A stretch of 32,731 nucleotides of DNA. Source: Candidatus Moranbacteria bacterium CG23_combo_of_CG06-09_8_20_14_all_35_22. GTDB lineage: Bacteria; Patescibacteriota; Minisyncoccia; Moranbacterales; UBA2206. The translations under genes and the position numbers were made by a program. Under the pieces are notes generated by a model that worked only from the letters and a program-made list of their open reading frames with translations, was not told the DNA's origin and ran no database searches. Every line of letters begins with the position of its first letter. The stretch's first letter is position 1. Location of the stretch: assembly GCA_002772115.1 (NCBI GenBank), contig PCRW01000076.1:1802-34532 (forward strand), written 5' to 3'. Below are positions 13 to 28,947 of this stretch, one piece after another.

Positions 13-97
13 TGGTGCCGATGGTGGGACTTGAACCCACAAACCTTGCGGCACACGAACCTGAATCGTGCGTGTTTGCCAATTTCACCACATCGGC
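13..97 (-). tRNA. tRNA-Leu(CAG)
   Basis: Reverse complement folds as a cloverleaf: GCCGATG/CATCGGC acceptor stem, CACGA-TTCAGGT-TCGTG anticodon arm, long variable arm, GTTCAA T-loop, encoded CCA. Confidence 0.96.
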
Positions 98-1467: not shown

Positions 1468-2126
1468 ACGATTTGATCTTTAATTTTTTTTAATATCTCC
1501 ACCACTTTATCATTTTTTTGAAGTTCGTCAACTGATTTCATTATACTTTCCGTATTTTCAGGATCTTCCAGCGTTTTAACTGCAAATATTCGAATAGTTT
1601 TATTCTCAGGTTTCCTCTCCACATATTTAGCCAAAATAGCATACCACAAGCCAAATGTTTCTGGACTTATATTTAAATTATTTTTTATATATGGCGGATT
1701 GTTAAAATAATTTACAATTTTTTCCCAATTATTATATTCGTCATAAATTAATTCTTCTTCCAAAAACTTGGCTGCTTGAATATAAAATTTAGTGTCATTC
1801 TTGAAGGAATAGAAATTATATTTATTTAAAATTTCTTCGCGTTTCATATCACAATACAAATGAAATTTCCAGCCAGCTTCAAATGATGTAAGCCCCGAAA
1901 AATTCAAATTCAAAACAGGAAAATAAAGGTGAGTATCTTTTCTTTTTATACTTTTATCAATCCTGCGAATATCTGGAAAAACACAGCCCAAAATAAATTC
2001 GTCGCGACTAATTTTACTCGTCGGCACCAAAAGCGTTTTTTCATCTTCCAAATCATTAAGACCCTCCGAATCCAATCGGTCAAAATATTTCTTAGCATAA
2101 ACAATGTGCGCAATTTGTGAAGCCAT
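1464..2126 (-). CDS. Hypothetical protein, possibly zinc-dependent phospholipase C-like fold
   Basis: 220 aa, 4-bp overlap with the folD start; N-terminal His, GCVFPD, TH and HLYCD pattern. Confidence 0.6.
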   Translation of the reverse strand: MASQIAHIVYAKKYFDRLDSEGLNDLEDEKTLLVPTSKISRDEFILGCVFPDIRRIDKSIKRKDTHLYFPVLNLNFSGLTSFEAGWKFHLYCDMKREEILNKYNFYSFKNDTKFYIQAAKFLEEELIYDEYNNWEKIVNYFNNPPYIKNNLNISPETFGLWYAILAKYVERKPENKTIRIFAVKTLEDPENTESIMKSVDELQKNDKVVEILKKIKDQIV

Positions 2127-2167
2127 GCTATAATAATACCATAAAAATTAATAATAGCTATAACTAT

Positions 2168-2395
2168 ATGCCAAATGAATTAGAACAACCAAATTTAACT
2201 ATAATTCGCCGACGAAAAAAAGAAAATGGTGATACTAAGGATACCCGATTAGAAAATGGCCAAATAATAAAAACAGATCTAATTGGAGGAATAACACCGG
2301 AAGAAGTCAATGAAAAAGAAGTTCGGACTAAAAATGAAGCGATGGAAAGAAAATTAAAAGAAGAAATCACCGACTTTTTAGCTACAAGAAAATAA
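2168..2395 (+). CDS. Small hypothetical protein
   Basis: ATG at 2168 follows an extended -10 (TGCTATAAT, ~2126-2134); a terminator follows the stop. Confidence 0.6.
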   Translation: MPNELEQPNLTIIRRRKKENGDTKDTRLENGQIIKTDLIGGITPEEVNEKEVRTKNEAMERKLKEEITDFLATRK

Positions 2396-2405
2396 CTACT
2401 AAACT

Positions 2406-2440
2406 AAAGCGGGATCAAAAAAAACAATCCCGCTTTTTTT
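2406..2440 (+). terminator. Intrinsic terminator
   Basis: AAAGCGGGAT...ATCCCGCTTT stem followed by a T run. Confidence 0.8.
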
Positions 2441-2455
2441 ATTTTTTTTATTTAT

Positions 2456-2576
2456 CACTTTTATTTTATATCTTAATTTACAACATCAACCTAGCCAGCC
2501 TCTGTCTCACTTTTGTGCATATGCACAAATTTGAGAATAATCACAAACTATGCATATGCATAAAGTTGATTATTCT
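2456..2576. repeat. Inter-module direct repeat R1 (TGCATATGCA palindromes)
   Basis: 2516-2576 is identical to 3707-3767; 2456-2491 closely matches 4839-4874. Confidence 0.92.
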
Positions 2577-2603
2577 GTCCCAAAGCTCAACTTTTAATTT
2601 CCT

Positions 2604-3593
2604 TTAAACTTCACTAATCACATCAAAACCTTTGAAACTTCCCACTACTGAATAACCGATAATTTTGATTTTTTTGTCAGTTATAGTTCTGATTTTTTTG
2701 GCTGTTTCATTTAGTGTCGCTCCAGAACCCGTAGCATCGTCGATAATCAAGATATTTGAATTGATAGTTTGATTTGGATTTATCGCTATCGTAGTTTGAG
2801 CATTAATTATCCGGTCTTCCAATTTTCGTAATGTTTTTTGTGGAATTTTAGTAGGACTATCAATTTTAACTGCATTTATTTTAGCCAGATTCAAATTCAA
2901 GTATTTCTCAAAAACATCTAAGAATTGAACTTTACGATCGATGGTTGGTGGGATAAAGCAAATTAATCCAATATTATATTTTTCAATTATATCCTTTATT
3001 CCGCTTTTAGTTAGTTTTGCAATTTCCAAAATCAAATCCTTGTTTTGAGAAGATTTTCCCAAATAGACCAATTGTCCCAATTTTGTCTTGCCAAAATGAC
3101 CAATAGTATAAAAATCACTAAAAAAAATATCATCCAGATAGACTTTCTCTTTTCCAGAAAGAATTATTTTTTTAGCAGAAATTAGTCCACTTTTTTTATT
3201 TTTAAATTTTTGGCTAATTTTAAGTTTTTGAATAAATTCTTCTTTTTCTTTTTCAAGATTAAATTGGTTTTTTCGGCACCAAATCTGAAATCCGGAAATT
3301 CCTCGAGATATCTCTCCACTAGGCGAAACATAGATATAATTTTGCTCAATAAGTTGATCGTCTTTGTCTAATGAATCAAAGTTTATATTTTCCAATTCAT
3401 TATCAACCACATAAAAAACACGCGGTACTGAGCCAGTTTTTTTGACTAATCGTTCATCCAGTAATTTCGCCAAATGTTTATGTGAGTTTTTTGAGGATAG
3501 GCCAAGCATTTTGATCAGTTCGGTTGACCTAATTGGACCATACTGCCTTATAATCCCCAATACTTTTTTTGCCTCCTTTGAAATATTTATCAT
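2604..3593 (-). CDS. Winged-HTH plus phosphoribosyltransferase (ComF-like) protein
   Basis: N-terminal HTH-like segment; C-terminal PRPP-binding loop ILIIDDATGSGATL. Confidence 0.8.
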   Translation of the reverse strand: MINISKEAKKVLGIIRQYGPIRSTELIKMLGLSSKNSHKHLAKLLDERLVKKTGSVPRVFYVVDNELENINFDSLDKDDQLIEQNYIYVSPSGEISRGISGFQIWCRKNQFNLEKEKEEFIQKLKISQKFKNKKSGLISAKKIILSGKEKVYLDDIFFSDFYTIGHFGKTKLGQLVYLGKSSQNKDLILEIAKLTKSGIKDIIEKYNIGLICFIPPTIDRKVQFLDVFEKYLNLNLAKINAVKIDSPTKIPQKTLRKLEDRIINAQTTIAINPNQTINSNILIIDDATGSGATLNETAKKIRTITDKKIKIIGYSVVGSFKGFDVISEV

Positions 3594-3599
3594 AATATG

Positions 3600-3628
3600 A
3601 TTATAGCAGGTGAGTATTCACCTGTCAA
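3600..3628 (-). promoter_or_regulatory. Sigma70 promoter with a palindromic operator, probably leaderless
   Basis: TTGACA-17-TATAAT with extended TG; the spacer holds CAGGTGAGTATTCACCTG; ATG lies 6 nt after the -10. Confidence 0.8.
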
Positions 3629-3657
3629 TACTCACCCCCTAATAACGCCCTGTAATC

Positions 3658-3767
3658 TCTGCCTCTTTTTATTTTCCTATTCTATATCCACTACTCTCAC
3701 TTTCTATGCATATGCACAAATTTGAGAATAATCACAAACTATGCATATGCATAAAGTTGATTATTCT
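3658..3767. repeat. Inter-module direct repeat R2
   Basis: Shares a 61-bp identical block with R1 and TCTGCCTCTTTTTATTTT with R3. Confidence 0.92.
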
Positions 3768-3778
3768 TTTTGCGTAAT

Positions 3779-4213
3779 TTATTTTTTCTTCAAAATTTTC
3801 TTTGCTTCTTTCAAGAAATCCACTGCACTTTCCAACATACTTTCAGTTCCGGTTTTGTCAAAATCGCCATAATAATCAGCATTTTCACGAAGAGATTTTC
3901 CCAGTTGGAGTGCTTCCAAAAATTTATAACTCAAAATATTTTCTGCAATGTATAAAGATTTCAAAGCTTCCATTAAACAAAAGTGACTTTTCTCACGATA
4001 GCCTTTTTTATAAATCAAAGCCCTAGCTGTATGAAACATTGAATAATAAGTTTGAATTGTGCTCCATTTATAATTCTTTTGTACAAAACTATCTTGGGCT
4101 ATTTTCAAATCTTCCTTGGCTAAATCCAATTCTTTCAAAACTAACTGCTTGGCTTTGAAAAATGTTTTTATCTTTCCTCTCTCTAAACATTTTTCAAATT
4201 CCCTAGTCTTCAT
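3779..4213 (-). CDS. HEPN domain protein (toxin of an MNT-HEPN pair)
   Basis: YYSMFH..RA, GYREKSH and RENADY motifs; the likely start MKTREF overlaps the MNT stop. Confidence 0.88.
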   Translation of the reverse strand: MKTREFEKCLERGKIKTFFKAKQLVLKELDLAKEDLKIAQDSFVQKNYKWSTIQTYYSMFHTARALIYKKGYREKSHFCLMEALKSLYIAENILSYKFLEALQLGKSLRENADYYGDFDKTGTESMLESAVDFLKEAKKILKKK

Positions 4214-4739
4214 TTTTTTCCCAAAGCACTCTGCCTTTTTCAATCTCTTGAAAAAGCAAAGGCTTATTTTTATTAATTTTTATCATTTCATTGGGAGTTT
4301 TCACGATTAACTGAATCTTTTCTGAAAATTCTGAATTATTTATTATTTTTCTCACAACATTTAAGCTATTTGTTAGGACAAATATATCAATATCGCTGTC
4401 TTTTTTGTTCATTCCATCAGCAAACGATCCGAATAAAACAATTCTTATACTTTCCAATCTTAATTTTTCCACCAAAGGCTCAAGCGCTAAAATATTCAAA
4501 AGAATTTTCATTTCCCGAATTAAATTGTTTTTAACATCAGCACTGTAAAGAGAGCTTCTGCCAATTTTTCTACAACTTATCAATTTATGTTTAACTAAAA
4601 GATGCAACGCTAAATTAACCGCCGATTTCTTGACACCTGTTTTTTTTGAAATTTCTTTTTCTTGAAATTCTTCTCCGACATTTTCGCATATAAAAGCTAA
4701 TATCTTTTGTTGAGAAGTTGTGAAAAATATCTCTTTCAT
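4203..4739 (-). CDS. HTH plus minimal nucleotidyltransferase (MNT antitoxin)
   Basis: LFGSFADG....SDIDIFV motif, N-terminal HTH, directly upstream of the HEPN gene. Confidence 0.9.
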   Translation of the reverse strand: MKEIFFTTSQQKILAFICENVGEEFQEKEISKKTGVKKSAVNLALHLLVKHKLISCRKIGRSSLYSADVKNNLIREMKILLNILALEPLVEKLRLESIRIVLFGSFADGMNKKDSDIDIFVLTNSLNVVRKIINNSEFSEKIQLIVKTPNEMIKINKNKPLLFQEIEKGRVLWEKNED

Positions 4740-4777
4740 GGTTTTATATTATATTCCATTATTTTGGATATATTTCC

Positions 4778-4806
4778 ATTATAATGGAATACAATAATTT
4801 TGTCAA
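4778..4806 (-). promoter_or_regulatory. Sigma70 promoter of MNT-HEPN with operator
   Basis: TTGACA-17-TATAAT; the -10 is centred in the palindrome TTCCATTATAATGGAA, with a degenerate second copy at ~4753-4769. Confidence 0.8.
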
Positions 4807-4819
4807 TATTCACGCGCGA

Positions 4820-4913
4820 TCTGCCTCTTTTTATTTTGCACTTTTATTTTATATTTTAATTTCCAACAACAACCACTTTCTCACTTTTATGCATATGCAC
4901 AAAAGTGATTATT
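4820..4913. repeat. Inter-module direct repeat R3 (shortened)
   Basis: Contains segments shared with both R1 and R2, and one TGCATATGCA palindrome. Confidence 0.85.
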
Positions 4914-5074
4914 TCGTTTTGTTGGAGATACTTTCATTATTTCGAAAAGAATATTGTGCACTCTTACTCTCTCATCAAAGTTGAGCTTTTTGAAAAGTTT
5001 AGGCTCCACCCTAAAGCTCAACTTTTAACATCCCACATTTTGTTTCATGCTTTATGTTTCATGTTTCATGCTTT

Positions 5075-6649
5075 TTATTCCACCCAATACTTCTTCTTCA
5101 TCAATTCTTCCTCCTCTTTCTTTTCTTCTTCGATTTTTTTCTTAGCCATCACGCGAAGATCGTTAAGATCTTTTTTATTTAAAGCTTTCGCCAAATTTAA
5201 TAAATCTTTTTTATTATTCAGTTTTTGATCATCAATCACCTCGGCTAGCATCACATCCAAGATTGCCCCAATTTTTGGTCCGGGTTGAAGTTTTAATTCT
5301 TTTATCAAATCATTGCCATTAATTTTGAGTTGCTTGACCGAAATTGCATCGTGCGAAACTTTTTCCACCATAAATTTGAAATGACGCAGTTTATATGGCA
5401 CGGCTTTTGCCACGCCTGACCCAAGTCGATCAGCAATTCGTACATCGATTAAATCATTGATATTTTCCACGCCAACTTTTTGCACCACTCGACGCACTCC
5501 CGATTCACCCACTTCATCCACATTGTAGTAGAACATATGATTTTTCACAAGCATCACAGTTTTCTCAATAACCTTCCTTGGATATTTCATCCGTTCTAAA
5601 ATTTTCTCCGCCATTTTTGCACCGACATATTCATGCGAATAGAAAGTTGCCATTTCCCCAGTTCCTCTTTTTGATTTCGGTTTTCCAATATCATGCAAAA
5701 ATGAGGCCAACCGCACTTCTAACTTGGATGACGGACATTTTTCTAAGCTAGCCAGAAGATGCGCATAAACCGTGTTGTATGGTCCAAAATAATGATGGCG
5801 ATTTTGCTTTATCCCAATTGCTTCAATTATCTCAGGAATAAATTCATCCATCAATTTACTTTCCACTAAAAGTTCCACCCCCCCACTTGGATCACTTGAA
5901 AGAATTATCTTATTGAATTCATCTCGAATTCTTTCTTGTGAAATAAATCGTAAATTTTTCGCATTCTTCTTGATCGCCAAAAAAGTTTTTTCTTCGATAG
6001 TCCAACTATTTTGAATTTGAGATTTTGAATTTGAAATTTGTTTGTTATTTGTTATTTGAGATTTGTTATTTCCGCTAAGCTGAACAGCGAAGCGGACTGC
6101 TCGCATCATCCGCAGTGCATCCTCATCAAATCTTTCATTTGCATCCCCTACTGCCCGAATTATTTTATTCTTAAGATCTTCTTGCCCCCCAAACAAATCA
6201 ATAATTTCATATTTGTCTTTTGTTTCATGTTTCATGTTGCATGCTACATGAATTGCCATCGCATTCACCGTAAAATCTCTTCTTGAAAGATCTTCTCCTA
6301 AAGTTTTAGCAAATTTCACCTCATCCGGATGACGCTTATCAGAATATTTTGATTCGATACGATATGTGGTAATTTCCACATTCGGCCCATCCCAATCTTT
6401 TTCTTCTACGCCCTCAATATATTTCAAAGGCAACATCACTGTCCCAAAATCATTCTCATATTTTCCGTCTGGAAAGATTTTCAAAATTTCCTCCGGCTTT
6501 CCATTTGTTGCAATGTCCCAATCCTTCGGTTCCTTTTCTAACATCAAATCCCGCACACATCCACCAACTATATACGCCTCAAAACCAGCCCATTCGAGCT
6601 TTCTAATAACTTCTATTATATATTGAGGGAATTCTATTTTTTTAGTCAT
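5075..6649 (-). CDS. cca: CCA tRNA nucleotidyltransferase with HD domain
   Basis: AYIVGGCVRD, KDWDIAT, DLSRRDFTVNAMA, RFDEDALRMMRAVRF and LHDIGKP; two low-complexity in-frame inserts. Confidence 0.9.
   Translation of the reverse strand: MTKKIEFPQYIIEVIRKLEWAGFEAYIVGGCVRDLMLEKEPKDWDIATNGKPEEILKIFPDGKYENDFGTVMLPLKYIEGVEEKDWDGPNVEITTYRIESKYSDKRHPDEVKFAKTLGEDLSRRDFTVNAMAIHVACNMKHETKDKYEIIDLFGGQEDLKNKIIRAVGDANERFDEDALRMMRAVRFAVQLSGNNKSQITNNKQISNSKSQIQNSWTIEEKTFLAIKKNAKNLRFISQERIRDEFNKIILSSDPSGGVELLVESKLMDEFIPEIIEAIGIKQNRHHYFGPYNTVYAHLLASLEKCPSSKLEVRLASFLHDIGKPKSKRGTGEMATFYSHEYVGAKMAEKILERMKYPRKVIEKTVMLVKNHMFYYNVDEVGESGVRRVVQKVGVENINDLIDVRIADRLGSGVAKAVPYKLRHFKFMVEKVSHDAISVKQLKINGNDLIKELKLQPGPKIGAILDVMLAEVIDDQKLNNKKDLLNLAKALNKKDLNDLRVMAKKKIEEEKKEEEELMKKKYWVE
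6009..6071. repeat. Degenerate heptamer repeat tract within cca
   Basis: TTTGAAT/TTTGTTA units encoding NNKSQITNNKQISNSKSQIQN. Confidence 0.8.
6221..6250. repeat. TGTTTCA heptamer tract within cca; a second tract lies at 5041-5071
   Basis: Encodes HVACNMKHET; the same unit recurs just downstream of the cca stop. Confidence 0.8.
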
Positions 6650-7241: not shown

Positions 7242-7985
7242 ATGATAAAAAACATTTTCAAAAAACAGCTGATTGGTCTTGGTTTTAGTGATCACGAGGC
7301 GGATATCTATCTAGTTCTACTAGAAAATGGACATTCCTCGACTGGACCAATTATCAAAAAAACTAATTTGCATCGAAATATCGTCTATGAGACGCTAAAT
7401 AAGTTAGTTAACAAGAAATTCGTTTCTGAATCTAATCAACGAGGCATAAAACACTACAAAGCACTAAATCCAGAAAAAATATTGCATCATAAAGAAGAAC
7501 AATTCAATCTTGCTCAAAATTTAATCCCCCAACTTAAGGATTTACAAACAAAAGAAAAAGTTGAAGTAGTTTTATATGAAGGTTTAAGCGGTTTTCAGAC
7601 AGCTCTTAAAAACGCAATTGATAGAATTACTCCCAATCAAAATATATTGGTTTTAGCAACTGGAGGAGAATTTTTTTACAAAAATATTGGCAATGCTCTT
7701 AAATATTACGACAAAAAAAGAAAAGAGAAAAAAATCAATATCAAAATGATTTATCAATCTTCCAAAAACGAAAGCCTGGCAAAAACTACACGCCTTAGAC
7801 CACTTATGGAAGTTAAATATATTGAATCTCCTTTTTTGCCAATTTCTGAAATTGAAATTATGGAAAATACAATTTTAATGCAAATTTATTCTGATCCTCC
7901 TGTGGTAATTGAAATATCCAGCAAAGAAGTCGCCGATAGTTACAGAAATCATTTTACTGATCTTTGGGAGAAAGCTGAAAAATAA
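7242..7985 (+). CDS. TrmB-family HTH transcriptional regulator
   Basis: GFSDHEADIYLVLL and VYETLNKLVNKKFV; C-terminal FTDLWEKA; TGCTATAAT ends 6 nt before the ATG. Confidence 0.85.
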   Translation: MIKNIFKKQLIGLGFSDHEADIYLVLLENGHSSTGPIIKKTNLHRNIVYETLNKLVNKKFVSESNQRGIKHYKALNPEKILHHKEEQFNLAQNLIPQLKDLQTKEKVEVVLYEGLSGFQTALKNAIDRITPNQNILVLATGGEFFYKNIGNALKYYDKKRKEKKINIKMIYQSSKNESLAKTTRLRPLMEVKYIESPFLPISEIEIMENTILMQIYSDPPVVIEISSKEVADSYRNHFTDLWEKAEK

Positions 7986-8041: not shown

Positions 8042-8240
8042 TGTCCCCACCAAGAATCGAACTTGAATCTAGAGCTTCCGCCAAAGGCGGACAAGTAGGA
8101 GTCTCTGTTCCCCGCCTGCCATCGCCTGTGCCCTCGTCAAGAATCGAACTTGAATCTAGAGCTTAGGAGTCTCTTGTTCTATCCGTTGAACTACGAGGGC
8201 TCAGGCAAAGGCGGGCAGGTATCCATTGAACTATGAGGAC
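8042..8240 (-). pseudogene. Outer interrupted tRNA-Arg(CCU) copy
   Basis: GTCCTCA/TGGGGAC acceptor stem and an intact T arm; broken by a 109-nt insert in the D-loop (8111-8219) and an ~19-nt hairpin after the anticodon (~8077-8095). Confidence 0.85.
8129..8200 (-). tRNA. tRNA-Arg(CCU), intact, nested in the outer copy
   Basis: GCCCTCG/CGAGGGC acceptor, GTTC/GAAC D stem, CT-CCT-AA loop, TCAAG-TTCGATT-CTTGA T arm; 31-39 mismatch; no encoded CCA. Confidence 0.92.
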
Positions 8241-8245
8241 AATCG

Positions 8246-8872
8246 TTAGGTTAATTCTTTTTTAATAAATTTTATCATACTTATAATTAACTTGAATGAT
8301 TTTGTGCCGTTAGTGACTCTTACTCTGCACATACCATAAGGTAATTTTCCTTCTTTCTTTCCTTTTAGCACATTTACATTTACAATACTTTTTATGTTTA
8401 TTCTGCACACTTTTGCCCAATATTTTTTTGATTCATTGATATTTATACTATCATATATTCTTATTGAAACGCGCAAATCATCTTTATTAACACCAATCTC
8501 TTTTATGCAAGAAATGAATACGCGAATAAGATCTGGGTCACTATTAATAATATTCAAGTCTTTTTTTGTTCCCTCTCCCCAATAAATAGCCGCAAGAATT
8601 AAAAGTTTTTCTTTTTTTGAAATTTTTTTTAATAATTTTTTTGCATTATATTCAGATTCTTTCCATAATTTTTCGGCCCTAACAATACTACCTCCTTGCT
8701 TTCTTTTAAGAATATCCGCAAATTCAGGCAAAACAGCTACTTCTTTCGTATATCTCTGGATTGTAGATTTACCTCTTCCTAACACTGTGCAAATTTCAGA
8801 TATACTATGCCCTTTTTGACGAAGGTTTTTAATCTGATTAGCTTCTTTTTTTGTTATAATTTTTCCATTCAT
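8246..8872 (-). CDS. HTH plus LAGLIDADG-like endonuclease-fold protein
   Basis: N-terminal HTH (LRQKGHSISEI...GKSTIQRY); helix ILAAIYWGEG followed by NSDP; flanked by tRNA-Arg pieces. Confidence 0.7.
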   Translation of the reverse strand: MNGKIITKKEANQIKNLRQKGHSISEICTVLGRGKSTIQRYTKEVAVLPEFADILKRKQGGSIVRAEKLWKESEYNAKKLLKKISKKEKLLILAAIYWGEGTKKDLNIINSDPDLIRVFISCIKEIGVNKDDLRVSIRIYDSININESKKYWAKVCRINIKSIVNVNVLKGKKEGKLPYGMCRVRVTNGTKSFKLIISMIKFIKKELT

Positions 8873-9886: not shown

Positions 9887-11887
9887 ATGAGTAGTTTGAT
9901 TTCTAGATTTTGGAACAATTTCAAAACTCAACCAGATATGTGGTTCTTTTTTGGGTTTTTATTAACTTTTACGCTAAGTATTAGGAAAGTAATGTTATAC
10001 TTTCCAATCCAAGGAACTTTCAATGAATATTCCGGAGTGTTTATCTACCTTTCAGATGTTTTTCTAATTTTAACTCTAGTTTTCTGGTTTATATCTATAT
10101 TATGCAATGATTTTATTATTTTGTCAAGGTACAGGCTGTGGATAAGTAGTGCTTTCCACAAGTTACCCCCACACCAAAATTATAAATATAATCTCTATAA
10201 AATTAAGATTTATCTAAAAAATAGCCTCAAAATGAGAGCAAAGCGTATTTTTAATTTTTGGTGGAGGGGCATGTACATATTTTTACCTCTATTTTTAGTT
10301 TTTCTTTCTTTTTTATCAATTCTATGGTCGCAAAATCTGTCAATAGCCCTTTTCCGATCATTTAAGCTTTTGGAGTTTTATTTATTATATCTTTATATTA
10401 TTTTCAGATTTGTTTCAAAATTGTTCCACGCCCGCCTGCCAAAAAATTGTTCCGCGCCTATCTGCGACAATAATGTTCCACGCCCGCCTGCCGGCGAGGC
10501 AGGTGGAACATCCATCAATGAGAAGCAAGGATCAACCTCTAATTGTTCCACATGGAACAATTTTGGGCGGGTGGAACAATTTTGGGCGGGTGGAACAATT
10601 TGGTTATTTTTTAACATCATTATAATTTTAGGCTTATTTCAAGCCATAATCGGCATCATTCAATTTTTCCTACAAAAATCAATTGACCTATTTTGGCTTC
10701 GAGAAAGCCTAATTTCACCAGAAATCCTTGGGGTGGCTAAAGTAATCTTAAATGGAGAAAAATACATCCGCGCCTATGGCCTTATGACACATCCTAATGT
10801 TTTGGGTGGATTCTTACTATTTTCTATTGTTATCACATTATTATATAAAAAAATGTTCCATATGAAACATCAACTACCCCCCTCGCCTTTACAAGGAGAT
10901 GGGCAAGGGGTGAGGTTAAGCGATGTTCCACGTGGAACAATATCAGAAAAAAAGATATCTTCAATATCCAATTGTTCCACATGGAACAATTGGATATTTA
11001 GGCTTATTTTAGCCATTCAAATTTTAGCGCTAATCTTAACATTCTCAAAATCAGCCATAATTGGGCTCATTATCGCTCTTATATGCCTATCTGTGCCTGC
11101 CCGCCAAAAAAATGTTCCATGTGGAACACTATCAAAAGAAGAGTTTTATCCAAATTCAAATTGTTCCACGTGGAACAATTCTAAAATACACCTCACCCAA
11201 TCCCTCTCCTTATTAAGGAGAAAGTGGCTCAAGATGTTCCATGTGGAACATTTGAAATTAATAATCCTCTCGGTCTTAATTATTTTAGTATCCATATTTT
11301 TCATAATTAAACCCAATTTGAATTCTTTATTTTTTAATTCCCTAAATGAACGCCTATTTTATCTAAATGTTCCATATGGAACATTTGAGAGTGATCTAGT
11401 ATTGGGAATTGGCGCCGGACAATCAGTCCTAATGATGCAAAAATTTTACTCACAAACTTTAGAATTCTGGCAATATCAGCCTATTCATAATGTTTTTCTA
11501 CTAATATTTAGCGAGTTAGGCTTAATCGGTCTAGGGTTATTTATTTGGTGGTTGTGGAAATTGTTCCACGTGGAACAATTTGAAAATTCACCTCATCCTA
11601 ACCTTCTCCTTATTAAGGAGAAGGAACTTGCCCCCCTCTCCTTTATAAGGAGAGGGGCAGGGGGTGAGGTTAAAATTGTTCCACATGGAACAATAGAAAA
11701 TAACGACTACATATTACACAATAATAATATATATTTGTCAAGTATAATATTCTCTCGATATTTCCAAAGAATTCTTTTAGGTCTTATTTTTATCATGCTT
11801 TTTGACCATTATATCTGGGATATCCAACAGGGGAGCCTCCTATTCTGGCTAACCGCCGGCTTTGTTGCTGGAATAAGCAGGAAATAA
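9887..11887 (+). CDS. O-antigen ligase/Wzy_C-like membrane protein with many repeat-derived inserts
   Basis: RAYGLMTHPNVLGG, TFSKSA, GIGAG, PIHNVFLLIFSELGLIG and FDHY motifs; many transmembrane segments. Confidence 0.82.
   Translation: MSSLISRFWNNFKTQPDMWFFFGFLLTFTLSIRKVMLYFPIQGTFNEYSGVFIYLSDVFLILTLVFWFISILCNDFIILSRYRLWISSAFHKLPPHQNYKYNLYKIKIYLKNSLKMRAKRIFNFWWRGMYIFLPLFLVFLSFLSILWSQNLSIALFRSFKLLEFYLLYLYIIFRFVSKLFHARLPKNCSAPICDNNVPRPPAGEAGGTSINEKQGSTSNCSTWNNFGRVEQFWAGGTIWLFFNIIIILGLFQAIIGIIQFFLQKSIDLFWLRESLISPEILGVAKVILNGEKYIRAYGLMTHPNVLGGFLLFSIVITLLYKKMFHMKHQLPPSPLQGDGQGVRLSDVPRGTISEKKISSISNCSTWNNWIFRLILAIQILALILTFSKSAIIGLIIALICLSVPARQKNVPCGTLSKEEFYPNSNCSTWNNSKIHLTQSLSLLRRKWLKMFHVEHLKLIILSVLIILVSIFFIIKPNLNSLFFNSLNERLFYLNVPYGTFESDLVLGIGAGQSVLMMQKFYSQTLEFWQYQPIHNVFLLIFSELGLIGLGLFIWWLWKLFHVEQFENSPHPNLLLIKEKELAPLSFIRRGAGGEVKIVPHGTIENNDYILHNNNIYLSSIIFSRYFQRILLGLIFIMLFDHYIWDIQQGSLLFWLTAGFVAGISRK
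10137..10145 (-). promoter_or_regulatory. DnaA-box consensus (TTATCCACA) inside the CDS
   Basis: TGTGGATAA on the + strand, with degenerate boxes just downstream (~10152-10172). Confidence 0.4.
10422..11692. promoter_or_regulatory. Cluster of parS centromere-like sites
   Basis: TGTTCCAYRTGRAACA at 10544, 10854, 10924, 10973, 11113, 11162, 11235, 11368, 11562 and 11677; one split site at 10474-10510; several half sites. Confidence 0.88.
10877..11669. repeat. CCTCACCC...CCCTCTCC-GGAGAGGG hairpin repeats (family C)
   Basis: Copies at 10877-10915, 11191-11224 and an inverted doublet at 11591-11669; more in pcrA at 30370-30403 and 32286-32321. Confidence 0.87.
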
Positions 11888-13618: not shown

Positions 13619-13656
13619 ATATTACACCCAGTCGCAATTGCGACTGGGTGTAATAT
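13619..13656. repeat. Perfect 38-bp palindrome, copy 1
   Basis: ATATTACACCCAGTCGCAATTGCGACTGGGTGTAATAT. Confidence 0.95.
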
Positions 13657-13791: not shown

Positions 13792-14394
13792 TTAGAGCTT
13801 GAATTCTTTTTTTAGTTTTTCTCCATAAAGCATTTTATCCACAGTAAGAATTTCGATAAATTTTTGCACATTATAAATTTCCGCTAAAAATAAAATTTCA
13901 TCTTCACATTCATAAGGATATACCCAAACGCTTTTTTGCAATTGGAAAAACCCCAGCGTCTTTATTTTGTCGCGCAAAGCTTCTCGCGCTTTATTGTATA
14001 TTTTCGGATAAGAGGGGATATCAAAAATAAAAACTCGCCACTTGCCATCCCACTTTTTCGGTTTGGCTATTTTCAATGCTTCAAAACAAAACTCTTTCAC
14101 ACGCTTTTGACCTTTATTGGTAAGTTGAACTTTTATTTTATTTTTGCCTTCTTGCAAAACTTCTATAAATTTCCGGTGTTTCAAAACATTGATCGTATTT
14201 TGTATTTTCTTTTTGGAAAATTTTTTTCCATACTTTCGATTTTTTTCTATCATTGAAAACATAGCCGGAACCAACGCTCCAGCAAAAACAATTCCGCCCA
14301 GCGCCAAAATCATTAAGACAAACTTAGTTACCGTAGCTTTCTTACTATCTGAATATAAAAAGTCTTCTATTGTATTTTTAATATTATTTTCCAT
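13792..14394 (-). CDS. PaaX-like regulator with a Cas2-like central domain
   Basis: LTNKG, KWDGKWRVFIFDIP and LGFFQLQKSVWVYP. Confidence 0.82.
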   Translation of the reverse strand: MENNIKNTIEDFLYSDSKKATVTKFVLMILALGGIVFAGALVPAMFSMIEKNRKYGKKFSKKKIQNTINVLKHRKFIEVLQEGKNKIKVQLTNKGQKRVKEFCFEALKIAKPKKWDGKWRVFIFDIPSYPKIYNKAREALRDKIKTLGFFQLQKSVWVYPYECEDEILFLAEIYNVQKFIEILTVDKMLYGEKLKKEFKL

Positions 14395-14445: not shown

Positions 14446-14481
14446 TATTACACCCAGACGCAATTGCGACTGGGTGTAATA
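14446..14481. repeat. Palindrome, copy 2
   Basis: Same sequence as 13620-13655 with one substitution. Confidence 0.95.
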
Positions 14482-27940: not shown

Positions 27941-28888
27941 TCAATCTTTTTTCCTTCTTCTGGCGTGAAATGCTTTATGCACTTCTTTGAGATGTGGGTT
28001 AGTGACATGGGTATAAATTTGGGTGGTGTTGATCGAAGCGTGACCGAGCATTGCTTGAACAGAGCGAATATCGGCTCCGTTCATCAAAAGATCAGTGGCA
28101 AAAGAATGACGCAGAGTGTGCGGATGGACATCTTTCACAATTCCCGCTTTCAAGGCATAGTATTTGACAATTCGTTGAATAGAACGCGGGGTGAGACGCA
28201 AATTATCATCATCCTTCGTATTTTCATTTTTCTTCTTAAATTTCGCCAAACTCTTAATATCCCGCACAAACAACGCCGGATCAACATCTTCCCTTTTTTT
28301 GAGATATTCTTCTAATGATTTTTTGGCTGTATCAGAGATAAAAACTACTCGAATTTTGTTGCCCTTGCCTCGCACACTCAATTCTCCGCTTTTGAGATTA
28401 AGTTTATCCCGATTGATATTAGTTAGCTCTGAAACTCGGAGTCCTGCCGAGAAAAGCAATTCCATAATTGCCCGATCACGCAGAGATTTGAAATTTACTC
28501 CGCCAGCCGATTCCAAAATCCTCTCCACTTCACTGTTTTCCAAAAAATCTACCTCTCGCTCCGGAGTTTTGCCAATCTCCACTTTTTCTGCCTGAAGAGT
28601 CTTCACATCCCGCTTAGCTAAATACTTTAAAAAACATCTTAACGCAATAATATAATAATTTTGAGTTATTTTCTTTAAATTTTGACCTTTTTCATTAGTA
28701 AATCGATTGAGATACAACCTAAAATTTCTGACTAAATCATCATTAATACCACTTGGATTGCTAATTTTTGCCCAAGCCAAAAATTTATCCAAATAACGAC
28801 CATAATTTTCAATCGTTTTGGGTGAACGCTGTTTTTCCACTTCCAAATATTCCAAAAATTGAGTTTTAAGCTTATAAAGTTCTGTCAT
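27941..28888 (-). CDS. XerC/D-type tyrosine recombinase
   Basis: RDRA...GLRVSE, GKGNKIR, HPHTLRHSFAT, MLGH and TTQIYTHV; ATG start at MTELYK. Confidence 0.93.
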   Translation of the reverse strand: MTELYKLKTQFLEYLEVEKQRSPKTIENYGRYLDKFLAWAKISNPSGINDDLVRNFRLYLNRFTNEKGQNLKKITQNYYIIALRCFLKYLAKRDVKTLQAEKVEIGKTPEREVDFLENSEVERILESAGGVNFKSLRDRAIMELLFSAGLRVSELTNINRDKLNLKSGELSVRGKGNKIRVVFISDTAKKSLEEYLKKREDVDPALFVRDIKSLAKFKKKNENTKDDDNLRLTPRSIQRIVKYYALKAGIVKDVHPHTLRHSFATDLLMNGADIRSVQAMLGHASINTTQIYTHVTNPHLKEVHKAFHARRRKKD

Positions 28889-28918
28889 ATTGAATTTATT
28901 ATACCCCAAAACTTCCGT

Positions 28919-28947
28919 TTGACAAAAAGACCCCAGCAAGCTATACT
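28919..28947 (+). promoter_or_regulatory. Sigma70 promoter
   Basis: TTGACA-17-TATACT upstream of the LysM gene. Confidence 0.75.

Follow-up and report, generated by a model that had tools for sequence, protein, structure and literature searches.

Three direct repeats and two self-contained toxin-like modules at an insertion hot spot between p92 and cca in a Moranbacteria genome

Here, we describe an array of two toxin-like modules delimited by three direct repeats, R1, R2 and R3, on contig PCRW01000076.1 of a Candidatus Moranbacteria bacterium. The window is the whole stretch of DNA that was analysed (32,731 nt), and coordinates without a contig label are window positions. Module 1 is a single gene coding for a winged helix-turn-helix (wHTH) protein fused to a phosphoribosyltransferase (PRTase), and module 2 is a gene pair coding for a wHTH-minimal nucleotidyltransferase (MNT) and a HEPN protein. 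The source genome, G000 (0.9 Mb, 94% complete), was compared with eight congeners (G001-G008), with the more distant relatives G014 (another genus), G017 and G021, and with 71 family genomes. Domain calls are from Pfam, defence families from PADLOC, and structural assignments from a predicted model and Foldseek. We propose, with a probability of roughly 0.55, that R1-R3 are nested duplications of the target or landing pad, which arose as two insertions followed one another at a hot spot of convergent terminators.

The p92/cca islet and its modules

The array and its borders contain the following features.

2168-2395, plus strand: p92, small conserved open reading frame (ORF; tblastn), left border, convergent with cca
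2408-2440, no strand assigned: GC-rich intrinsic terminator of p92, AAAGCGGGAT..ATCCCGCTTT plus T-run (fold -13.6 kcal/mol, z -5.7)
2445-2576, plus strand: R1, with AT-rich A-segment (2445-2491), palindrome A (2505-2536) and palindrome B (2537-2573)
2579-2602, plus strand: half hairpin resembling repetitive extragenic palindromes (REP), 3' half CCCAAAGCTCAACTTTTAATTTCC; direct repeat of 5010-5033 (24 nt at 88%)
2604-3593, minus strand: wHTH-PRTase, single gene, 329 aa; Pfam PRTase-CE (28.1 bits, cut-off 27) and HTH_24
3628..3600, minus strand: module 1 promoter, TTGACA-17-TATAAT (12/12)
3609-3621 / 3624-3636, minus strand: module 1 operator inverted repeat, 13-nt arms (12/13 match), overlapping the promoter
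3656-3767, plus strand: R2, with C-segment TCTGCCTCTTTTTATTTT (3658-3675), spacer, palindrome A (3696-3727) and palindrome B (3728-3764)
3779-4243, minus strand: HEPN protein, gene 2 of module 2; Pfam HEPN (1.4e-12), PADLOC PDC-M05B (0.0019)
4203-4739, minus strand: wHTH-MNT, gene 1 of module 2; Pfam Polbeta (1.5e-13) and NTP_transf_2, PADLOC PDC-M05A (1.2e-18)
4747-4771 / 4772-4796, minus strand: longer inverted repeat of module 2
4774-4781 / 4782-4789, minus strand: module 2 operator TTCCATTA / TAATGGAA, perfect 8-nt arms centred on the -10
4806..4778, minus strand: module 2 promoter, TTGACA-17-TATAAT (12/12)
4818-4912, plus strand: R3, with C-segment (4820-4837), A-segment (4828-4874) and one hybrid palindrome (4879-4912)
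4978-5028, no strand assigned: full REP-like hairpin AAAGTTGAGCTTT..loop..AAAGCTCAACTTT (-18.3 kcal/mol, z -2.1)
5038-5072, plus strand: TTTCATG-type short repeats before the cca stop, right border, kept in empty sites
5075-6649, minus strand: cca, CCA-adding enzyme, right border gene; Pfam PolyA_pol and HD

Two of the eight congeners, G003 and G006, possess an empty site, which aligns to the window as far as position 2444 (G003) or 2452 (G006) and then again from 5038, with nothing in between. As both genomes join the p92 terminator directly to the 3' flank of cca, the segment 2441-5037 is an insertion islet between the convergent genes p92 and cca. p92 is the sole plus-strand gene of the region, all others lying on the minus strand, and it adjoins cca in the empty sites (48% in G003 and 53% in G006 by tblastn); its terminator is conserved there, and the insertion begins directly after it. 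The G+C content of the islet is 30.2%, compared with 34.4% for the window. Synteny around cca was found in 37 of the 41 genomes searched, and the order p112-folD-PLPC220-x-cca, in which x denotes variable content, in seven of the eight congeners and in G021, the contig of G001 ending short of folD and p112. What occupies x differs between relatives: only p92, its terminator and the TTTCATG repeats in G003 and G006, TrmB-like regulators and small ORFs in G004 and G005, a class V fructose bisphosphatase (FBPase) in G002 and G007, and three TrmB-like genes, a methyltransferase, a MerR-type helix-turn-helix (HTH) protein and an MNT-HEPN pair in G008. Downstream of cca, G014 carries a DUF4325 pair between two palindromes and G017 a PDC-S01 ATPase, a methyltransferase and TrmB-like genes; the stretches fetched for these two genomes gave no PLPC220. 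TTTCATG-like repeats are also present inside the coding region of cca (6204-6250), where they encode an HETK-rich stretch.

The MNT-HEPN module occupies the p92/cca site in G000 and G008 and the efp site in G001 and G003. The G008 block matches the window at 90% identity over 3779-5026 only, a segment that opens with the HEPN stop and has the full hairpin as its right end; both flanks differ, and a PRTase gene is absent. In G001, the promoter-to-stop unit of module 2 (81% over 3783-4791) lies between efp and a small ORF, and G003 has an orphan MNT gene at the efp site. A metagenome scan with cca returned 80 loci but no new close relatives of the window arrangement among them; only one locus, a near copy of that of G008, has a strict palindrome, and in the more distant relatives cca is directly followed by PLPC220 or p112. 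By these comparisons of gene order, the locus is a hot spot that gains self-contained conflict modules individually, and the repeats are tied to the gain events.

The PRTase gene of module 1 stands alone between R1 and R2; no ShosA, PsyrA or reverse transcriptase (RT) partner was found beside it, its gene neighbours being the MNT/HEPN pair and p92. The phosphoribosyl pyrophosphate (PRPP) loop ILIIDDATGSGAT lies at residue 281, and PADLOC returned matches to the C-terminal half of PsyrT (5.4e-14), to ShosT (1.8e-4) and to the retron family PRTase_III-A (9.6e-5). In domain content and PRPP-loop motif, the protein is like the defence PRTases ShosT, PsyrT and the type III-A retron effectors, from which it differs by its N-terminal wHTH and by the absence of a partner. 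A table in PMC13712802 lists PRTase-CE families alongside the clades of type III-A retrons. The closest homologues (66-69% at the aa level) are found in six other genera, whereas the two matches within the genus (G001 and G003) show 46% identity.

In module 2, the wHTH-MNT ORF overlaps the HEPN ORF. The MNT motif GSx10DxD (GSFADGMNKKDSDID) is located at residue 104, and the HEPN protein, which is 97% identical in G008 at the aa level, contains the motif R83-E-K-S-H87, that is R-x3-H, whereas the canonical HEPN motif is R-x4-6-H. The pair matches the PADLOC candidate system PDC-M05 and, from its sequence, reads like a toxin-antitoxin (TA) system of the HepT/MntA type. Domain content and MNT motif agree with the type VII HepT/MntA systems; the differences are the N-terminal wHTH on the first gene and the R-x3-H spacing.

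A first-pass annotation of this DNA had assigned each module its own TTGACA-17-TATAAT promoter and a palindromic operator, and both assignments hold, as each promoter matches at 12 of 12 positions and inverted repeats overlap both. Across the region, promoter-like sites are not enriched (15 versus 15.3 expected). Based on the promoter palindromes, the N-terminal HTH of each module probably binds the inverted repeat overlapping its own promoter, which would amount to autorepression by the fused HTH domains. The -10 of module 1 ends 7 nt ahead of the ATG, and its mRNA may therefore be leaderless.

The repeats lie at the places originally annotated. R1 and R2 share exactly 61 identical bases (2516-2576 = 3707-3767), their longest exact run, which is contained in an alignment of 66 nt (97% identity, 2511-2576 / 3702-3767) and in a wider one of 73 nt (97%, 2505-2576 / 3695-3767). 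As had also been claimed, R3 shares a different segment with each of them: the A-segment with R1 (47 nt, 89%, 2445-2491 / 4828-4874, extending to 85 aligned columns at 80%, 2445-2529 / 4828-4903) and the C-segment with R2 (28 nt, 86%, 3658-3685 / 4820-4847, containing TCTGCCTCTTTTTATTTT). The repeats form a mosaic, in which the left part is common to R1 and R3, the right part to R1 and R2, and the C-segment to R2 and R3. The A- and C-segments have no other occurrence in G000 and are confined to the window contig; in the C-segment, the right arm of a GGCAGA..TCTGCC terminator is preserved together with its T-run, the terminator being intact in G004 and G005. The palindrome core, TGCATATGCA, has five matches in the window (2516, 2551, 3707, 3742 and 4890) compared with 0.03 expected, a number reached in none of 100 shuffles, and the first four are the two palindromes each that had been recognised in R1 and R2. 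The palindrome of R3 is a hybrid with the left arm of type A and the right arm of type B, and its orthologue in G008 is a hybrid likewise.

The 16-mer AAAGCTCAACTTTTAA is present exactly at 2582 and 5013, as previously noted (0.01 expected in the window), but it has to be redefined as the 3' arm of a dispersed hairpin element. This hairpin of approximately 50 nt, AAAGTTGAGCTTT-loop(GGCTCCACCCT-like)-AAAGCTCAACTTT, is found at 4978-5028 and at six other loci of G000 (C7, C24, C28, C59, C75 and C79), and on C7, TTCATG-type repeats come after it once more. In G000, the arm motif AAAGTTGAGCTTT has 6 occurrences and AAAGCTCAACTTT has 8. Over positions 2000-5600, an Rfam scan returned nothing above the gathering score (best snoR104, 31.6 of 40 bits) and a terminator scan returned no canonical terminators.

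As genes delimited by imperfect palindromic repeats recall an integron-like cassette array, and as a metagenome-assembled contig carrying 61 identical bases twice might be an artefact joining repeat-bearing fragments, both explanations have to be considered, and both are extremely improbable. The earlier observation that attC cores are lacking is correct for R1, R2 and R3 proper, which contain neither GTTRRRY nor RYYYAAC boxes; only the arms of the flanking hairpin read GTTGAGC / GCTCAAC, which could be counted in favour of an integron, but these boxes are in the reverse of the attC order. In addition, no IntI is encoded beside the array, the nearest tyrosine recombinase lies 23 kb away, and each module has a 12/12 promoter. 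With regard to an artefact, independent assemblies carry pieces of the array, namely the G008 block (3779-5026 at 90%) and, in G004, the C-segment together with the double palindrome. Twenty-four groundwater or aquifer DNA runs were listed, all as Logan contigs and with no RNA run among them, and four runs matching part of the window were compared at 88% likeness. The contigs from public runs that match the window are short, of approximately 3x depth and identical to it; a 1223-nt contig from another run covers 2336-3558 without a difference, and no listed piece spans R2. Candidate joints in these contigs were dismissed as not credible, their sides being only 21-43 nt long. Neither an excision junction nor a circle was seen in this low-depth material, which is unsuited to reveal one and speaks neither for nor against excision.

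A palindrome family of the lineage

The palindromes of R1-R3 belong to a two-fold symmetric element of 28-36 bp with the pattern TCA-N6-7-TGCATATGCA-N6-7-TGA and four covarying bases on each flank. In the genus, two flank types can be distinguished, A (CTC..GAG) and B (ATAA..TTAT), and R1 and R2 each carry type A followed by type B. The repeat core is not restricted to the window: G000 has 12 copies at 7 loci (11 exact cores and one variant), none of them inside an ORF with a family match, and the strict pattern is present in 17 of the 71 family genomes, compared with 0 of 71 for the reversed control pattern. In a scan of species representatives, contigs with at least two sites are nearly all titled Moranbacteria or Moraniibacteriota (among them contig L288, with two close sites), the exception being labelled Bdellovibrionales, and single matches are scattered over unrelated taxa, as chance predicts. 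Our search of the literature on palindromic repeats in Patescibacteria and Moranbacteria returned nothing on this element.

The symmetry extends beyond the bases fixed by the search. As the TCA, core and TGA columns are set by the pattern, the pairing signal refers to the other ten pairs; among 29 equal-length sites, 85.3% of the cells are paired versus 72.2% in shuffles (reached by 0 of 500), and the covariation score is 0.314 versus 0.113, with slid registers at 31-41%. The N6-7 spacers of 46 unique sites are 63.8% complementary compared with a null of 54.4% (sd 2.4, maximum 61.5, 1000 shuffles). That the 10-mer is exactly conserved across genera argues for sequence-specific recognition of the palindrome by a protein. 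These data indicate that it is a selected, lineage-wide element, which normally stands at the ends of transcription units.

Two types of neighbours are recurrent. A conserved 203-aa gene, which adjoins a TrmB-like gene and codes for a PaaX_M Cas2-like domain with, as read by eye from the sequence, an N-terminal membrane segment, is bracketed by the palindrome in 7 of the 10 fetched loci and on contig C48 of G000, where a third copy at the Cas2-like gene has one core mismatch. The palindrome lies 8-61 bp before the start and at most 62 bp after the stop of this gene, touching the stop in G008 and G001. Similarly, it is located 7-27 bp after the stops of TrmB-like genes in four genomes (G000:C19, G047, G053 and G015), and all five PF01978 (TrmB-like) genes of G000 reside on palindrome-bearing contigs. 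A TrmB-like protein is encoded in the window at 7242-7985, with paralogues on C19 and C48. In a profile search of PDB (E 2.2e-8, residues 8-243), the TrmB-like proteins of G000 proved to be related to TrmBL2 over their full length; the predicted model (pLDDT 92) has 5box as its best Foldseek match (2.8e-14) and shows a C-terminal fold like that of phospholipase D (PLD). We considered whether the TrmB-like protein might be a nuclease or recombinase and rejected this, as the model matches TrmBL2 first, the PLD-like fold is typical of the family and no His or Lys is conserved. A CRISPR- or casposon-like origin, suggested by the Cas2-like gene and the palindromic target duplication, was discarded as well, because no Cas1 was found in G000 at its 94% completeness.

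We take the palindrome to be a boundary or operator element to which a protein binds; the TrmBL2-like regulators, which always lie nearby, may be this protein. Taken to its limit, this would mean that the palindromes are purely regulatory or structural, serving as TrmBL2-like operators or insulating boundary hairpins, that they recur in the array since every module requires one, without a part in the arrival of the DNA, and that the array arose from unrelated illegitimate events. The positions at the Cas2-like gene in seven genomes and behind the TrmB-like genes in four, the proximity of copies to all five TrmB genes of G000 and the strong two-fold covariation favour such a role, as do a solo palindrome between the convergent gatB and miaA stops and a second Cas2-like paralogue bracketed by a palindrome of a different family. 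On the other hand, the repeats reach well past the palindrome into the A- and C-segments, which occur on the window contig only, R1 and R2 share 61 exact bases between unrelated flanks, at hot spots the palindromes are restricted to occupied sites, and the distance from palindrome to promoter varies (approximately -120 in the window and -78 in G001). We therefore regard a purely regulatory explanation of the array as distinctly improbable.

The second PaaX_M Cas2-like membrane paralogue (13792-14394, minus strand) lies between palindromes at 13619-13656 and 14446-14481, the same palindrome-gene-palindrome layout as in the TGCATATGCA family. These palindromes are perfect, 36-38 bp long and belong to another family (ATATTACACCCAGTCGCAATTGCGACTGGGTGTAATAT), of which a third copy is located at G000:C24:12957-13000. 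Further palindromes in G000 include a TTGGAGTCTAAATCTCCAATTGGAGATTTAGACTCCAA type of 40-58 bp with at least nine copies, one of them in frame inside an ORF resembling REP-associated tyrosine transposases (RAYT), and two GTAG-headed REP-like types; example loci of these other families are C33:23270-23327, C72:4083-4132 and 4600-4653, and C43:25661-25692. Two parS-like palindromes (TGTTCCACGTGGAACA inside AAATTGTTCCACGTGGAACAATT) are found 400 bp apart in the window, at approximately 11155-11184 and 11555-11584.

Insertions elsewhere and the origin of the repeats

Insertions of the same style are present at other sites. On contig C19 of G000, a direct repeat of 48 bp (47/48) encloses an insert of 1798 bp, which consists of palindrome B, a TrmB-like gene, two ORFs and palindrome A. 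The repeat covers the final codon and the stop of efp together with the entire bidirectional terminator. The 48-mer is single-copy in G008, where efp is joined directly to the small ORF, and the efp sites of G002, G004 and G007 are likewise empty, efp leading to the small ORF through a single terminator. A palindrome accompanies the efp terminator in all three occupied sites (G000, G001 and, as a degenerate copy, G003) and in none of the four empty ones. In G003, the site has grown into an 8-kb islet of three units, each a TrmB-like gene with a divergent small operon, in which a 51-bp repeat (94%) surrounds 4.8 kb. At the cca site, G017 has two displaced cca 3' ends between modules (99 bp at 83% and 74 bp at 73%) and G002 has one (49 bp, 86%), the match in G008 being weak (24 bp, E 0.002). 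At the gatB/miaA site, contig C66 of G000 carries a solo type-A palindrome between the convergent genes. G008 has no palindrome here; in G000, it directly adjoins a left half-terminator of gatB, which G001 possesses in full, and in G007 the 3' end of gatB is duplicated.

A TrmBL2-like gene with a divergent operon of two to three small family-less, often membrane-like ORFs is a recurrent unit, seen in L354 (G003:C33:1500-11500), L355 (G017:C7:78000-84000) and L356 (G016:C2:60000-66000), with up to three in tandem per islet. Upstream of efp in G000, a repeat of approximately 105 nt occurs three times (94-97%) between small genes (C19:2360-2466, 3548-3655 and 3872-3979).

The mosaic of R1-R3, that is the sharing of the left part between R1 and R3, of the right part between R1 and R2 and of the C-segment between R2 and R3, suggests nested insertions. 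Each insertion would have duplicated the local stretch of terminator T-run, AT-rich spacer and palindrome, one insertion lying inside the other. Module 2 would have been brought in by the older event, which left the outer 80% repeat (2445-2529 / 4828-4903), and module 1 by the younger one, which left the inner 97% repeat (2505-2576 / 3695-3767) with its 61 exact nucleotides; we infer this order, as well as the crossover mechanism, from the arrangement of the repeats. The mechanism that we favour is a single crossover of the Campbell type, in which a module that was circularised or taken up recombines within the shared stretch, or alternatively hairpin breakage. The crossover of a circle consisting of module plus stretch would reproduce the mosaic, and so would breakage of a hairpin followed by repair. 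Four junctions lie in hairpin loops, namely those at the two C-segments, the half hairpin at 2579-2602 and the half terminator of gatB. The data are compatible with both a homologous and a site-specific crossover.

Several observations weigh against this proposal. The state before either window insertion was seen in no genome, so that the order of nesting had to be reconstructed. Different stretches were duplicated in different events (efp terminator, 3' ends of TrmB and cca, palindrome doublet); they contain no common att site, and at 22-85 bp they are short for a RecA-driven crossover. The hybrid palindrome of R3 could stem either from a crossover in the core or from the loss of 35 bp between the two cores of an A-B doublet. 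None of the 11 fetched loci of other PRTase homologues has the palindrome, and the 8-kb islet of G003 contains only one, degenerate copy; the palindromes are therefore not needed for the existence of a module or the growth of an islet. Binding of a protein to the palindrome is itself a proposal. The hairpins are more stable in the antisense direction at the Cas2-like gene and in the sense direction at the window modules, and since the more stable strand does not track the direction of the neighbouring gene, a role as RNA hairpin was rejected. As no U-tract follows the type-A palindromes on the minus strand (read from the sequence), a plain function as intrinsic terminator is doubtful.

The original annotation had gone further and proposed a repeat-mediated exchange site for defence or TA genes. 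The repeat core is not confined to this locus and the gene content of the site is not invariant across relatives, so that both grounds on which that annotation would have been refuted fall away. A repeat-bounded site at which self-contained defence or TA modules come and go is supported by our comparison, but the repeats as dedicated exchange sites are not supported, because the palindrome also brackets conserved, non-mobile genes, the 11 other PRTase loci do without it, the duplicated segments differ between events and the low-depth contigs showed no excision junction. A more specific version of this idea is that the 28-bp palindrome (11-6-11) is the site of a Xer-like or other recombinase acting in trans, which shuffles the modules as a chromosomal counterpart of Acinetobacter pdif. 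Five units are bounded by palindromes (modules 1 and 2 of the window, the C19 insert, the DUF4325 module of G014 and the Cas2-like gene), the site in R3 combines an A-left with a B-right arm in both G000 and G008, palindromes are present at occupied and not at empty efp sites, G000 possesses two PF00589 genes, and pdif sites, according to PMC13141974, measure 11+6+11 bp and are in many cases associated with TA genes. Nevertheless, we think that this is unlikely: the palindrome arms are unlike those of dif/pdif (..TATAA / TTATG..), the palindrome is most conserved at its centre, where pdif sites have their variable spacer, neither the outer borders of the window islet nor the efp duplication of 48 bp coincides with palindrome cores, G000 and G001 differ in the sequence that separates palindrome from module, the copies compared in the genus of the window include a single hybrid site, and in 7 of 10 fetched loci the palindrome brackets a syntenic conserved gene. 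A palindrome-directed recombination system in general is rather unlikely too. In its fullest form, such a system would be a Moranbacteria-type chromosomal module shuffling, in which the palindrome is the end or crossover site of self-regulated TA, defence or TrmB-plus-operon units of 1-2 kb, which insert at terminator hairpins between convergent genes with duplication of the whole target, by a factor in trans that belongs to no known integron, Xer-dif or transposase system; this we consider quite doubtful.

No dedicated recombinase for R1-R3 was identified among the recombinases of G000, which comprise two tyrosine (PF00589) and two serine recombinases; together with seven Y1_Tnp (RAYT-like) ORFs, none of these is linked to the TGCATATGCA family. 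Three of the seven Y1_Tnp ORFs (C38, C72 and C73) have flanking hairpins of other families, either CCTAA..TTAGG stems, as on C38 and C73, or the TTGGAGTCTAAATCTCC palindrome. Among the islet genes of G000, G004, G005, G008, G014 and G017, there were no matches to recombinase families. The statement of the first-pass annotation that no integrase is adjacent holds inside the window, but approximately 2.4 kb to the left of the array, outside the window, lies an ORF for a large serine recombinase (520 aa, G000:C43:273-1835, Resolvase domain 4.7e-22), and an XerC/D-type tyrosine recombinase is encoded at 27941-28939. The large serine recombinase abuts a tRNA-Leu gene (window 13-97) and sits beyond the conserved syntenic genes, and among the relatives' and metagenome loci checked it has one distant match only (L116, 34%); we regard it as the probable mark of a further integrative element, located at tRNA-Leu. 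The XerC/D-type gene (minus strand; Phage_integrase and SAM_1) lies beside tRNA-Met and tRNA-Val. A 208-aa ORF (8246-8872, minus strand) beside tRNA-Arg (8128-8200) has an N-terminal HTH of the resolvase type, and the remainder, which has no family match, looks from its sequence like a LAGLIDADG-type homing endonuclease.

Meaning and comparison with known systems

According to PMC12455944, Patescibacteria, whose genomes are tiny, are often said to lack classical defence and TA systems; the same paper reports over 100 genomic islands and proposes competence as a route of gene acquisition. Against this background, a genome of only 0.9 Mb keeps at least three intergenic hot spots, all of them between housekeeping genes in convergent orientation (p92/cca, efp/small ORF and gatB/miaA), which accumulate autonomous modules of 1-2 kb, each event leaving a duplication of 20-100 bp. 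If the palindrome is a recombination or boundary site, it might provide a handle on how streamlined, probably competent episymbionts trade accessory genes without integrases. If it is instead the site of a regulator, a regulon would be defined for the TrmBL2-like proteins, which are numerous in these genomes.

The array shares single traits with several known systems. An integron cassette array is recognised by adjacent intI, attI and Pc, by attC boxes and by mostly promoterless cassettes, none of which was found here. In PMC13141974 and PMC6449649, pdif modules are described as small and self-contained, many of them TA systems, arranged in varied combinations between 28-bp two-fold-symmetric sites. 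The window palindrome is similar in length (28-29 bp) and symmetry and likewise delimits self-contained TA-like modules, whereas its arms, TCAnnnnnnTG / CAnnnnnnTGA, are unlike the pdif arms ..CGTATAA / TTATGTTAA.. given in PMC13141974. In addition, pdif is a plasmid system, while the array described here is chromosomal, the palindrome has a conserved centre and it also brackets conserved genes. Crossover in pdif takes place in the sites; in the window, one site is hybrid (R3 and its G008 orthologue), and the outer borders, like the efp duplication, lie outside the cores.

The REP/BIME (REPIN)-RAYT systems also consist of short, dispersed extragenic palindromes at gene ends, and G000 has seven RAYT-like ORFs, but the TGCATATGCA family has only 12 copies, no GTAG head and no RAYT gene that it flanks, and its core is conserved across genera. 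Islets at 3' ends, of the kind found at tRNA and tmRNA genes, resemble the array in the direct duplication of the target (48 bp at efp), in the displaced cca 3' ends of G017 and in serial accretion. Such tRNA- or tmRNA-type islands carry their own integrase, whereas here no integrase lies inside, the modules are 1-2 kb in size and the duplicated sequence varies per event. The minimal mobile elements of Neisseria are variable cassettes that are moved by transformation and homologous recombination and need no internal repeats. Like them, the p92/cca locus is a fixed pair of conserved genes that holds different small gene sets in different relatives, and its host lineage may take up DNA, competence in Patescibacteria being proposed in PMC12455944; it differs from them by its nested duplications and by the palindromes at the ends of its modules.

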